Below are positions 4,217-41,289 of a stretch of DNA of 62,826 nt, piece by piece (position 1 is the first letter of the stretch; each line of letters begins with the position of its first letter). Source of the stretch: an uncultured Candidatus Nemicrothrix sp. (lineage in GTDB: Bacteria; Actinomycetota; Acidimicrobiia; Acidimicrobiales; Aldehydirespiratoraceae). The stretch is taken from positions 1-62,826 of the forward strand of contig CAZEML010000003.1 of NCBI GenBank assembly GCA_964513285.1. The letters are read 5' to 3'. Position numbers and translations under genes: made by a program. Below the pieces are notes generated by a model. That model searched no databases, was not told the DNA's origin, and worked only from the letters and a program-made list of their open reading frames with translations.

Positions 4217-5437
4217 CTACTCGACGGTGGGATCGGTCTCTTCGATCGCCTCGACGGCGACCTCGGTCATGGGGGCCCCGGCCGGAACCGGGGCTTGGGG
4301 CACGATCGTGATGAATCGGGCCTTGAATCTGCGCCAGCCCGCCGCGACACCGCCGGGCATGAAGAACGTCAACAAGATCAGCATGACGCCGAGCACGAAG
4401 CTGCCGCTCGGCCCCTGGAGCCACCGTTCGGGGATCCCGGGCACGTCCTGGGTCCCGGAGGCCCAGTCGGGGATGACGGCGATGATGACGCCGCCGATCG
4501 CAGCACCCGACAGGGTGCCGACACCGCCGACCACGAGACCGACGATGAAGTTGATGGCGATGAGCTGGGTGAAGTCGTCGGGCGAGGCGATGCCGAGCTC
4601 GGCGACGTAGATCACGCCGCCGACACCACCGAGCGCCGAGGCCACACCGAACGCCAGCGTCTTGGTCTGGGCGAGATCGACACCCGAGACGGCGGCGCCG
4701 GTCTCGTTGTCGCGCACGGCCCGCATGGCACGGCCGGGACGACTCTTGATGAGGTTGGCGACCAGCCAGAAACAGACGGCGGCGATCAACATGAAGAGGA
4801 AGAACTTCCACAGCCGCTCCTCCTGCTTGGCCGGGATCGGCCCATCACCGAAGTAGCCGCCGAGCAGCGGAATGCCCTGGAGGAACTCCGCGAACCCGTC
4901 GAACGGGATCCATCCGGGTGGTTCGAGTTCGGGATCGGCGATCTTGCCGCCCGAACCGTTGGTGTAGGGCTGCAGCGACTCCAGCTTGACGACCGACGGG
5001 AACACCTGGGCCATACCCAACGTGATCAGCGCCAGATACAGGCCTCGAATCCGCAGCGCCGGAAGGCCGAGGACGACGCCGACGATGAAGCAGGCCGGGA
5101 TGACGACCAGAAGGGTCAGCAGGATGTGCCAGTCCTTGTCGGCCACGAGCCATGCCGCGATGTAGGCACCCATGCCGAAGAAGAACGACTGGCCCAAGGC
5201 GAGCTGGCCGGTGTAGCCGACCACGACCTGGAGGCCGAGGATGGCGACGGCGAACGCCACCGCCTTGTTCAAGCGGATGAGGCTGATGTTGTAGGTGTTC
5301 TCGCCGAGCGAGATCGAGCCGACGTCGACGTACGCGAAGGCGATGAGGATGATGGCGAGGACGCCGAGGCCCCAGGTCACCAACTGGTAGGTGCGGTGCT
5401 GACTCGAGCCCGCAGCAATGGTCCAACGTGAATTCAT
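4217..5437 (-). CDS. livM: Branched-chain amino acid ABC transporter permease (LivM type)
   Basis: 406-aa polytopic membrane protein with LivM-like motifs (GQLALGQSFFFGMGAY). Sits in an operon with livH/G/F. Confidence 0.85.
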   Translation of the reverse strand: MNSRWTIAAGSSQHRTYQLVTWGLGVLAIILIAFAYVDVGSISLGENTYNISLIRLNKAVAFAVAILGLQVVVGYTGQLALGQSFFFGMGAYIAAWLVADKDWHILLTLLVVIPACFIVGVVLGLPALRIRGLYLALITLGMAQVFPSVVKLESLQPYTNGSGGKIADPELEPPGWIPFDGFAEFLQGIPLLGGYFGDGPIPAKQEERLWKFFLFMLIAAVCFWLVANLIKSRPGRAMRAVRDNETGAAVSGVDLAQTKTLAFGVASALGGVGGVIYVAELGIASPDDFTQLIAINFIVGLVVGGVGTLSGAAIGGVIIAVIPDWASGTQDVPGIPERWLQGPSGSFVLGVMLILLTFFMPGGVAAGWRRFKARFITIVPQAPVPAGAPMTEVAVEAIEETDPTVE

Positions 5438-39064: not shown

Positions 39065-40612
39065 TCAGAACGGCCAGTCGGCGTCACGGCCCTGCTCGAG
39101 CGTCCGCATCAAGCTGAACGTGGCGTCGGAGAATCCGGCCAGCGTGTAGCGGCCCCGACCGCCGCTCGGCATCGACCGAGGCCGGTAACCGGCCAGGTCG
39201 ACCGTGTAGATCAGCGGCACGTGGCTCAGGCTCACCGAGCCCGAGTCGTGCATCTGATCGTCGGTGAACATCACGACTCGGTCGTGACGTCGCCGGTCGA
39301 AGTGGGCGGCGACGGCCGTGTGGCCATAGGTCGAGTGACCGACCGAGCCGACCATCGACACCAGGTCGGCCACGACACCGAGGACCGACGCGCCCTTGCG
39401 GATCCGCACGGCTCGGTTGCTGTGGCCGAAGATGACGACATCGGCGTCGTTCGATCGGGTCGCGGTGACCGCTGCCATGACCGCCGCCACCTCGACTCGA
39501 GTCATCACCGACCGGTTCGCCACCCGCGCCTGCATCGAGCCCGACATGTCGATGACCACCAGGGTTCGATCGAGCGACGGGACGTTGCGAGTCGTGAGGT
39601 CGAGCGTACGGCCGAGCGCCCGCTTCCAGTCATCCGACGGAGCGTGCGAGTACGCCGCCCACACCTGGTACGGGAAGAGGCGAGCCTTCGCCACCTCGTC
39701 CGCGTCGGTGATGCGGTCCAACACCGTCGAGATCGCCGCATCGCTGATGCCACGCTCGTCGAAGTTGCGCAGGTTGCGGATGAGCGCCATCGCACCCATC
39801 GAAGGAATCACCGACTCCCACGCCTCGGCGTCCATGCCGTCCGGCAGCCAGCCCGACAGTCGCTCCCACGAGGTACCGGCCTCGGCCAGCGCTCGCGGTC
39901 CACGCGCGGCGAGCTCGGCTCGTCGCTCCTCGACCGGGACCTTCGCGAGGTTCTCGGCCGCGGCGAGCACCGGAAGCACGTCGGCATCGGCGACGGCGTC
40001 GTCGTGGTGGCGACGGTCGAGCAGCCACGCGAACAGCGCGCTCTGACAGGCATCGCGCGGCTTCGGGTGGGTCAGCTCGATGACGTCGGCCATCCGTACG
40101 CCACGGCTCAGACCGTCGTACCGCAGAGCGGCACGCTCGGTGTAGAGCCGGGTCGCCGCGTCGGCGACGCCCCGCTTGACCGCCATCGGGAGACGGCGGC
40201 CGTGGCGCGAGTGCCAGTAGCCGATCATCTCGGCCGGCTCGTCACCGCGCTGGAGCACGGCGTCGATCACTCGACGGCCCCGCTCGCCGCCGGCCGCCAC
40301 GTACTCGGCGGCCAGGATGATCGACGCCGAACGGATCTTCAGCTCGTTGCGCAGGTACGGCGCGAGCCGGGCGACGAACTCGGGGTTCGATGCCACGGTT
40401 CGCGCGACGAGGTCGACGAACCGCTGCTCGCGGTCCTCGGCCCGCTCGTAGAACGAGTCCTCGCCGGCGAGGTACGTCGCCGCCATGAGGAAGAGCTCCG
40501 ACTCGAGGTCGGCCGCCTGGCCGCGGCCGCCCTCGTGGGTGACGAGGGCGAGCCGACCGGTCCGGAGGGAAGCGATCGGGTTGATTCGGTTGTGCTTGCT
40601 GAACGTGACCAT
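39065..40612 (-). CDS. rsr: Ro60-related protein (Rsr): TROVE domain plus vWA/MIDAS
   Basis: Track ORF 39065-40840 trimmed to ATG 40612, which is preceded by GGAAGGAGG. 515 aa. The TROVE-like N-region reads ...FLMAATYLAGEDSFYERAEDREQRFVDLV...LRNELKIRSASIILAAEY. The C-terminal vWA domain carries DMSGSM (DxSxS). Confidence 0.9.
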   Translation of the reverse strand: MVTFSKHNRINPIASLRTGRLALVTHEGGRGQAADLESELFLMAATYLAGEDSFYERAEDREQRFVDLVARTVASNPEFVARLAPYLRNELKIRSASIILAAEYVAAGGERGRRVIDAVLQRGDEPAEMIGYWHSRHGRRLPMAVKRGVADAATRLYTERAALRYDGLSRGVRMADVIELTHPKPRDACQSALFAWLLDRRHHDDAVADADVLPVLAAAENLAKVPVEERRAELAARGPRALAEAGTSWERLSGWLPDGMDAEAWESVIPSMGAMALIRNLRNFDERGISDAAISTVLDRITDADEVAKARLFPYQVWAAYSHAPSDDWKRALGRTLDLTTRNVPSLDRTLVVIDMSGSMQARVANRSVMTRVEVAAVMAAVTATRSNDADVVIFGHSNRAVRIRKGASVLGVVADLVSMVGSVGHSTYGHTAVAAHFDRRRHDRVVMFTDDQMHDSGSVSLSHVPLIYTVDLAGYRPRSMPSGGRGRYTLAGFSDATFSLMRTLEQGRDADWPF

Positions 40613-40681
40613 GATGCGGCCTCCTTCCGGCCGGGTCGGTTGATGGATAGTTGTTGATGGTTGAGCGAGCGGATCAGGGAA

Positions 40682-40740
40682 CCGGGCGGGCGAGGTCACG
40701 CCCGGCCGAGTTGACGCGGGCGCCACGGAATCGAACCGAG
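40682..40740 (-). other. Orphan T-arm-like element (CTCGG-TTCGATT-CCGTG) followed by a GC hairpin, between the Y RNA and rsr
   Basis: The GGTTCGATTCC T-loop consensus sits at 40724-40740 without a matching acceptor or D-arm. Hairpin CCGGGCG/CGCCCGG lies at 40682-40705. This is possibly a tRNA remnant or the 3' module/terminator of the Y RNA transcript. Confidence 0.35.
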
Positions 40741-40787
40741 AAACACCAGAAGAAACCCCGCCCTTCGCAGCTGATCCGCGAACGGGG

Positions 40788-40944
40788 TGATCGGATCCGG
40801 CCCGAGAACCAGAGCGGCTGGGCTCAAAGCGCTCTACCAACTGAGCTACAGCCCGAAGACGTCGGGCTGACGGGACTCGAACCCGCGACCTCTCACGTTG
40901 CAGGTGAAGAACTCCCGGCCATCACAACGGGCCGGATCCGATCA
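40788..40944 (-). ncRNA. yrlA: YrlA-type Y RNA candidate (circularly permuted tRNA mimic on a 17-bp stem)
   Basis: Hand fold. The closing helix UGAUCGGAUCCGGCCCG (40944-40928) pairs with CGGGCCGGAUCCGAUCA (40804-40788). Inside, at 40886-40831, lie T-arm GCGGG-UUCGAGU-CCCGU, an 8-bp acceptor-like stem CAGCCCGA/UCGGGCUG capped by CGUCU, then UA and D-arm GCUC-AGUUGGUA-GAGC. It lies 175 nt upstream of rsr on the same strand. Confidence 0.7.
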
Positions 40945-41050
40945 GATGTCTCCGAGAGCCAGGCGATGGAACCCCCGCGCGGACATTCAACCGACACGTT
41001 CGCAGAGAAGTAGGTCCCGTCTACGCAACGGAGACAGAAAGAGGAGTGCA

Positions 41051-41258
41051 TCGACCAGACGCGGACCGGCCCGAGAACCAGGCGAGCGAGCGTTGCCCAT
41101 CGCTGGCATCGCGGAAGCGATGCGTCTGCCAGGTCAATTGATCCCCATCTGGCTCCAAGCGGCGCGTTTCCCAGACCGCAGGGTCTCGTCCGAAGACGAC
41201 ATCGGGCGTCGGGAGGAAGTACGCCTGCTCATCGCAGCGGGCCGGCGCGCCTCGTCGA
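41051..41258 (-). ncRNA. Second Y-RNA-like long-stem RNA candidate (paralogous stem, no obvious tRNA module)
   Basis: A hand-folded helix of about 20 bp. UCGAC-g-AGG-CGCG-CCGGCCCG (41258-41238) pairs with CGGGCCGG-uc-CGCG-UCU-g-GUCGA (41073-41051), leaving a 2-nt UC bulge. It shares the boxes CCGGCCCG-yUGyGAUG and CUGGUUCU-CGGGCCGG with the YrlA candidate. Confidence 0.45.
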
Positions 41259-41289
41259 AACACTCCACACCAAGAGACATCGTTGAACG

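Follow-up and report, generated by a model that had tools for sequence, protein, structure and literature searches.

Bacteria in which Y RNAs have been characterised have at least two of them, encoded near rsr, and a 5' motif of the form GNCGAAN0-1G is the likely contact with Rsr (Chen et al. 2014, PMC4201824). The YrlB gene of M. smegmatis is situated between YrlA and rsr, and its RNA has a T arm and is cut, together with YrlA, from a shared precursor; the presence of several Y RNAs in one rsr locus and their derivation from a single precursor are documented, and homologues of the Salmonella YrlB are confined to S. enterica (PMC4201824). Y RNAs follow a modular plan in which a stem with the Ro60 site is combined with an effector-binding head (Wang et al. 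2018, bioRxiv 10.1101/312249). PNPase in Deinococcus is the one characterised head partner, Salmonella YrlA co-purifies with PNPase, and the partner of the tRNA-like YrlA head was not identified in that study (Wang et al. 2018, bioRxiv 10.1101/312249).

The DNA analysed here (62,826 nucleotides; hereafter, the window) is one entire contig (C3) of a 4.5-Mb metagenome-assembled genome (MAG) in 397 contigs. It encodes on its minus strand a 515-aa Rsr (Ro60 orthologue; positions 39065 to 40612, with the ATG at 40612), which was recovered with the Pfam TROVE (2.1e-15) and vWA_Ro60 (3.2e-8) profiles, and, upstream of it, an array of 17 tRNA genes (42799 to 41289, minus strand; ARAGORN). Four tandem Y modules lie between them, and the order along the minus strand, read 5' to 3', is tRNA array, Y2, Y3, YrlA, Y4, and rsr. 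The sequence-only reading of this DNA had proposed a YrlA candidate, a second Y-like RNA that shares its helix and boxes, and a third, degenerate copy of the box at about 40951 to 40964. The picture of two Y RNAs and a scar is superseded by that of four modules, as recovered by the covariance model described below, and the supposed third box, at about 40952 to 40965, is the 3' box of the complete module Y3. The second Y-like RNA, here termed Y2, extends over 224 nt (41043 to 41266, minus strand, with a model-defined core at 41066 to 41245 and outer pairs from RNAfold); it is encoded on the same strand as rsr, and its 3' end at 41043 is 430 nt upstream of the rsr ATG. We read 41266 to 41043 as probably a genuine additional Y RNA gene of the Rsr (Ro60) system, at the head of a row of four tandem genes, and place the probability of this reading at roughly three in four.

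The general layout of such modules was read from the DNA upstream of rsr in loci fetched from species-representative genomes, metagenomes, and assemblies; these loci or contigs are designated by L numbers (L003, L072, and so on), and the relatives from which they come are labelled as Acidimicrobiales or Actinomycetota MAGs. Each module consists of a closing stem, the box YUGYGA(A/U)G, a 7-bp helix 2, (A/U)NCUUC, a variable head, the 3' strand of helix 2, GGUUCY, and the 3' strand of the stem. The usual order in the fetched loci is a tRNA array, sometimes a small module, YrlA with its T and D arms, a module with a T arm only, and rsr. The inner 8 bp that Y2 shares with YrlA are not the part conserved across the family, since stem sequences covary freely across Y modules; what is conserved family-wide is the 5' box UGCGA(A/U)G, helix 2, the CUUC tract, and the 3' GGUUCU, with [A/T]NCTTC found in every Y module listed.

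We then aligned 27 non-YrlA Y modules from other genomes (alignment A1), with no sequence from the window among them, and ran the covariance model generated from it (R1) on the entire 62.8-kb window with filters off. R1 recovered Y4 with 78 bits, YrlA with 51.9, Y2 with 48.1 (E = 5.7e-10), and Y3 with 42.8, and the next match, outside the four tandem modules and the rsr locus, scored 17.5 bits; the score of Y2 is thus comparable to that of the adjacent YrlA. Within A1, the T and both Gs of YUGYG do not vary, and G-T-[TC]-C-[CT] is conserved at the 3' box. Helix 2, which was not a criterion in selecting the modules, is 83% paired, with four of its seven pairs changed on both sides, and a shift of the partner by one column lowers the pairing of the two helices from 92% to 44 to 59%. 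A descriptor that combines regular expressions with a stem returned six matches in the 4.5-Mb genome, four of which are the tandem array, although it was partly derived from the window and is for this reason weaker evidence than R1. When R1 was run on the whole genome, with 150 of 6,383 candidates scored, only Y4 and YrlA were returned, which falls short of a full control. The helix and the shared boxes of Y2 are far beyond chance. The view that Y2 is a chance product of a GC-rich spacer could draw on the modest folding z-score of the whole molecule (-2.2); it is refuted by the E value of the independent model and by homologues in three other contigs, and the adjacency of four of the six genome-wide descriptor matches at this locus also speaks against it.

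The Y2 RNA is closed by a rod, P1, of 27 bp in three segments with three small bulges (RNAfold), in which the 5' strand GGAGUGU-u-UCGAC-g-AGGCGCGCCGGCCCG (41238 to 41266, minus strand; its inner 8 nt constitute stem 1) pairs with the 3' strand CGGGCCGG-uc-CGCGUCU-g-GUCGA-u-GCACUCC (41043 to 41073, minus strand). The helix of about 20 bp proposed by the sequence-only reading is recovered within it: UCGACGAGGCGCGCCGGCCCG at 41258 to 41238 pairs with CGGGCCGG-UC-CGCGUCU-G-GUCGA at 41073 to 41051, with the UC bulge in place. Its position was right and its extent too short, as the helix continues outward to 41266 and 41043 through the pairing of GGAGUGU (41266 to 41260) with GCACUCC (41049 to 41043). 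The duplex has a predicted energy of -53.8 kcal/mol as against -25.5 +/- 4.0 with the 3' strand shuffled, and at 27 to 31 bp the Y2 rods exceed the contiguous closing stems of the Y modules of these loci, which measure 5 to 17 bp. The innermost 8 bp, CCGGCCCG/CGGGCCGG, are, as had been noted, also present in the YrlA of the window. The flanking boxes are likewise shared with it, but the 5' one is longer than described and runs from the stem through CUGCGAU and helix 2 to UACUUCC.

Proceeding inward on the minus strand, the 5' box CUGCGAU (41231 to 41237), which aligns to cUGCGAA of the R1 consensus, is the local form of the putative Rsr-contact motif. It lies at the correct position for the published GNCGAAN0-1G, and the match is imperfect, as the local sequence is CUGCGAUG and the consensus of the lineage YUGCGAAG, with U for the first G and, in the window copy, U for the second A. 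It is followed by the 5' strand of helix 2 (P2; GAGCAGG, 41224 to 41230), six of whose seven positions pair with CUCGCUC (41090 to 41084), and by the pyrimidine tract UACUUCCUCCC (41211 to 41221), in which the CUUC common to all Y modules is extended to CUUCCUCC and whose CTTCCTCC is invariant in all four Y2 copies. The 3' strand of P2 and the 3' box GCCUGGUUCU after it occupy 41074 to 41090, and GTTCT of the latter is likewise invariant in four of four copies. Beyond this stem, as in the Y RNA plan, lies a distal module of about 135 nt with four internal hairpins: P3, UCGUC-UUCG-GACGA (41186 to 41199; pair probability, 0.91 to 0.93), the stem of which is invariant while the loop differs among the homologues (UUCG, UCCG, CAUG); P4, GCGGU...GCCGC (41159 to 41179), predicted by RNAalifold, with a variable loop and an invariant stem that carries no covariation evidence; P5, GCCAG-AUGGGGAUCAAUUGAC-CUGGC (41128 to 41153), with a 16-nt loop that contains the self-complementary UCAAUUGA; and P6, GCAUCGC-UUCC-GCGAUGC (41106 to 41123; base-pair probability, >0.97).

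The sequence-only reading had described an interior of small hairpins, among them the one here designated P6, with neither a T nor a D arm, and this holds. No T arm, D arm, or acceptor-like stem was found in 41043 to 41266, where the Rfam RF02553, tRNA, and ARAGORN searches gave zero matches, and the motifs GGUUCGA and UAGCUCA are absent from Y2. Rfam searches at permissive E values of the window and the homologues recovered no family that covers the head, and comparison of the head with those of YrlA, Y3, and Y4 revealed no similarity.

The neighbouring modules differ from Y2 in their heads and lengths. Y3 (40947 to 41036, minus strand; E = 1.3e-8 with R1) is a small module of 90 nt, GUCUCCG-UUGCGUAG...CUGGCUCU-CGGAGAC, whose equivalents upstream of YrlA are found in L039, L045, L051, L054, L055, L071 to L077, and L081 to L084. 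Its head varies freely among relatives, and its helix 2 shows compensatory change (GACGGGA/UUCCAUC in the window versus GGUGGGG/UUCCGCC in L003). YrlA (40788 to 40944, minus strand) has tRNA-like T and D arms and is matched by Rfam RF02553 with 39.3 bits (gathering score, 69). A tRNA-Cys(GCA) called by ARAGORN at 40861 to 40934 (minus strand) is the tRNA-like head of this RNA and not a tRNA gene; the same holds for L003 and L051. Y4 (40668 to 40781, minus strand), the best R1 match (E = 1.8e-17), has the sequence CGCGGAUCAG-CUGCGAAGGGCGGGGUUUCUUC ... CCCGGUUCC-CUGAUCCGC with a lone T arm, GGUUCGAUUCC, in its head, and most loci retain it between YrlA and rsr. It has the T arm and the place of the YrlB of M. 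smegmatis and is its positional equivalent.

The earlier naming of Y2 as a YrlB-like paralogue stands in part. It is, as judged by R1, a paralogue of YrlA with the same docking module and a different, non-tRNA-like head; the name fits if taken loosely, as in Salmonella, for a second Y RNA that has no tRNA-like domain, but the module that corresponds to the actinobacterial YrlB is the one at 40781 to 40668. Like the YrlB of S. Typhimurium and the Yrn2 of D. radiodurans (PMC4201824), Y2 would be a further Y RNA whose gene adjoins rsr and has the same orientation; the two ends of the RNA pair in a long stem, the 5' strand carries a candidate for the purine-rich motif of the GNCGAA type, and a full tRNA-like domain is lacking. 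Unlike these, it has a head of four hairpins and about 135 nt with a near-invariant 72-nt core, shares no sequence similarity with them, and is known here from its sequence, whereas Rsr binding has been demonstrated for YrlB and Yrn2. With the YrlB of M. smegmatis it shares the phylum and the operon logic, in that Y RNAs lie upstream of rsr and a single precursor would be made, but that RNA has a T arm and a place between YrlA and rsr, whereas Y2 precedes both Y3 and YrlA and is devoid of a T arm. With YrlA it shares the docking module and, in the genome of the window, the inner 8 bp and flanking boxes, but it lacks the T arm, D arm, and acceptor-like stem. Its location, its stem, the homology of its docking module, and its modular build together mark Y2 as a predicted Y RNA that is neither a YrlA, given its head, nor a YrlB of the M. 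smegmatis type. It is best regarded as a rare, new subtype within an established class of RNA, as opposed to a system of a new kind.

We found homologues of Y2 in three metagenome contigs (L073, positions 56 to 287; L072, 387 to 610; L081, 1932 to 2166; blastn E values from 1e-26 to 1e-33), all in the same position, between Y3 and a conserved CTCTTGG motif that follows the last tRNA. They came from contigs that encode the closest Rsr proteins (78 to 82% identity); blastn and nhmmer searches of the first 37 rsr loci with Y2 gave matches to the boxes only and no similarity in the head. The sequence-only reading had held that boxes absent or variable in related genomes would be scars of duplication; in L072, L073, and L081 the boxes are retained in conserved form, and so is the head. 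A core of 72 nt from P3 to P5 is 89 to 92% identical between the window and these homologues, whereas rsr DNA is 79 to 81% identical in the same loci, the rest of the Y array with its leader 67 to 69%, and the strands of the P1 rod 65 to 69%. The 72-nt core is the most conserved stretch of the locus, exceeding rsr itself. In alignments of the four Y2 copies (A2 and A3; window, L072, L073, and L081), the long invariant runs are GGACGAGACCCUGCGGU and GCGCCGCUUG.AGCCAGAUGGGG.UCAAUUGACCUGGCA. P5 has a single substitution across the four copies (A41142 of the loop to C in L081), with its stem and UCAAUUGA invariant. The alignment gaps are 1, 2, 3, 4, and 8 nt long and hence not all multiples of three, so that Y2 is not coding.

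RNAalifold and the folds computed individually for L072, L073, and L081 concur on P1, the box loop, P2, the CUUCCUCC junction, and P3 to P6, and P5 belongs to the minimum-free-energy fold in L072 and L073 and partly in L081. The P1 rods of the homologues have 27 to 31 bp and different sequences, and their strands still pair, with duplex energies across the copies of -42 to -54 kcal/mol versus about -20 to -26 kcal/mol when shuffled. P2 is 96% paired in the four copies, with one double change. P6 has 7, 9, or 12 bp and a wholly different sequence from copy to copy, and is always paired, with two pairs changed on both sides. Over A3 as a whole, 92.8% of the cells pair and four pairs are changed on both sides, which 3 of 500 shuffles equal. 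Covariation, to which the sequence-only reading had pointed as a check, is seen, in statistics that are thin, as there are only four sequences, two of them near-identical 3' of P3; the stems of P3, P4, and P5 are invariant and their folds are predictions. In the window copy, the family fold is less stable than the minimum-free-energy fold by 14 kcal/mol, and the copy's own thermodynamic ensemble gives P2, P4, and P5 probabilities of about 0 to 0.04. The minimum-free-energy structure of the whole molecule (-101.7 kcal/mol by RNAfold) contains the terminal helix.

Y2 is rare. Of 401 genomes sampled from the class, 5 have rsr, and a 97-nt Y2 core was not found in 400 sampled genomes of the order or in 60 relatives. 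Viral contigs yielded no exact match to the P5 core. Even the closest relative, a genome of the same genus (G004; locus L003, near-identical to L051), has no Y2. At the corresponding site it retains flanks of the form GGAGUG...CACUC around only a 19-nt insert that resembles the 5' rod strand. Such sites with a hairpin only, of 13 to 18 bp corresponding to the outer rod and with a short loop, follow CTCTTGG in three relatives (L003, about 940 to 975 on the minus strand, or L051, about 4630 to 4665; L075, about 313 to 360; L083, about 2812 to 2852). They suggest either repeated internal deletion or a hairpin with a role of its own. Many other loci have neither rod nor hairpin, and in L039, L045, and L054, Y3 directly follows CTCTTGG.

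In the tree of Rsr proteins, the window, with its full Y2, is sister to L048/L051, with the hairpin only (support, 100/99), and L072/L073, with the full Y2, are sister to L075, with the hairpin only (88/87); L081 (full) and L083 (hairpin only) fall in the same group of 12 rows alongside loci with neither. Either Y2 is thus old in the clade and has repeatedly been reduced or lost, or modules move between rsr cassettes by recombination. We read the Y2 gene as probably old within one Acidimicrobiales rsr clade. A recent gain was considered and rejected, given the remnant of the 5' rod strand retained in G004/L051 and the two occurrences in the Rsr tree of a full Y2 as sister to a hairpin-only site. 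Since neither the closest relative nor most of the clade has Y2, and since it was not found in the 400 genomes of the order, it is not essential to the system, and the relatives that are reduced to a bare hairpin or have no such gene indicate that it is dispensable.

Two observations bear on how these arrays change. The Rsr proteins of L072 and L073 are identical, and the two contigs hardly differ beyond the start of P3, while in the 5' 90 nt of Y2 and upstream of it the 5' rod strand and the spacer are strongly different; this mosaic favours some recombination within the Y array. In a more distant rsr locus (L035; 49% Rsr identity), there are four Y modules, of which one of 160 nt (1232 to 1391 of the reverse complement in its own coordinates; reverse strand) adjoins rsr, lacks both T and D arms, and has a head of several hairpins whose sequence is unrelated to Y2. 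Long heads that are not tRNA-like would therefore have arisen more than once.

Were Y2 a cis-acting element for the processing or stability of the tRNA-Y-rsr precursor, and not a stable trans-acting RNP, it would be the rod at the junction of the tRNA and Y arrays that functions, e.g., as a site for a double-strand RNase or as a protective 5' stem, with the Y-like portion inside a passenger. The retention of the outer-rod hairpin alone in L051/L003, L075, and L083, at the exact site after CTCTTGG, speaks for this, as does a rod that is unusually long beside the closing stems of the other modules. Yet this explanation leaves unaccounted for both the complete docking module inside the rod and the 72-nt core as the most conserved stretch of the locus, and the many loci in which Y3 directly follows CTCTTGG do without rod and hairpin altogether; we regard it as unlikely. 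Repeated loss and reduction would also suit a decaying, non-functional duplicate of a neighbouring Y RNA, that is, a duplication scar, as would the thermodynamics of the window copy, which do not favour the family fold; the inner 8 bp identical to those of YrlA could mean a recent copy or gene conversion. Against decay stand the identity of the core (89 to 92%) where rsr DNA has 79 to 81% and the spacers about 68%, the divergence of the rod and P6 in sequence with their pairing kept, and a head without similarity to those of YrlA, Y3, and Y4. This reading appears quite improbable.

As an extra Y RNA of the Rsr system, Y2 may act in three steps. It would be transcribed with the tRNA array, the Y array, and rsr as one precursor and be excised at the base of the 27-bp rod, as are YrlA and YrlB of M. 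smegmatis. By homology of its docking module to those of its neighbours, it would then be bound by the Rsr ring in the same way, via the 5' box. Finally, the four-hairpin, non-tRNA head would give the Rsr particle a partner or property different from that conferred by YrlA, for instance another protein, or the pairing of two particles through the palindromic UCAAUUGA loop. The narrower proposition, that Y2 constitutes a distinct Y subfamily whose 72-nt core docks another partner or whose UCAAUUGA kissing-loop joins two Rsr-Y2 particles, is possible but doubtful; if true, it would amount to a second, separable function of the Ro60 ring in these Acidimicrobiales. Another idea, that the head mimics the 3' end of 16S rRNA (L073: CCUGCGGUAUGGAUCA), was rejected because the UGGAUCA, part of a variable loop, does not recur in the other three copies. 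A search of the genome for a complementary target of the Y2 core found none, in a MAG that does not include the 16S 3' end for comparison.

Few head partners of bacterial Y RNAs have been characterised, and the Y2 head offers a route to another: not being tRNA-like, being more conserved than rsr, and sitting on a standard docking stem, it should serve as a clean bait for a new Rsr partner. The locus also displays the evolution of such arrays, with heads swapped on a covarying stem and whole modules trimmed to a hairpin. The gain is incremental, as four copies were found, the bacteria are uncultivated, and multi-gene arrays were already documented in the class.

The scan of the DNA between the tRNAs and rsr for promoter and terminator consensus sequences gave nothing exceeding background. 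Directly 5' of the first Y module, many rsr loci carry the motif GATGYCTCTTGG irrespective of the type of that module (window, 41270 to 41281, minus strand; L073, 41 to 52; L072, about 374 to 385; also L081, L075, L083, L051, L054, L045, and L085). It has no match to a promoter consensus and may mark a site of processing or belong to a promoter. The conserved upstream CTCTTGG...TTGC was tried as a sigma-54 promoter and rejected, since the spacing is off by one and TTGC is absent in the window; moreover, Actinomycetota are not known to have RpoN. In several rsr loci, a gene for an HNH endonuclease lies between the tRNA array and the Y RNAs or just upstream of them (L040/L041, about 730 to 1180; L042, about 830 to 1290; L081, 659 to 955). 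Finally, L045 (JAHDDY010000108.1), labelled as a Rhodobacteraceae MAG, has a tRNA, Y RNA, and rsr cassette of the Acidimicrobiales type with 80% Rsr identity; the mismatched label is probably a binning error, or possibly the cassette was transferred.
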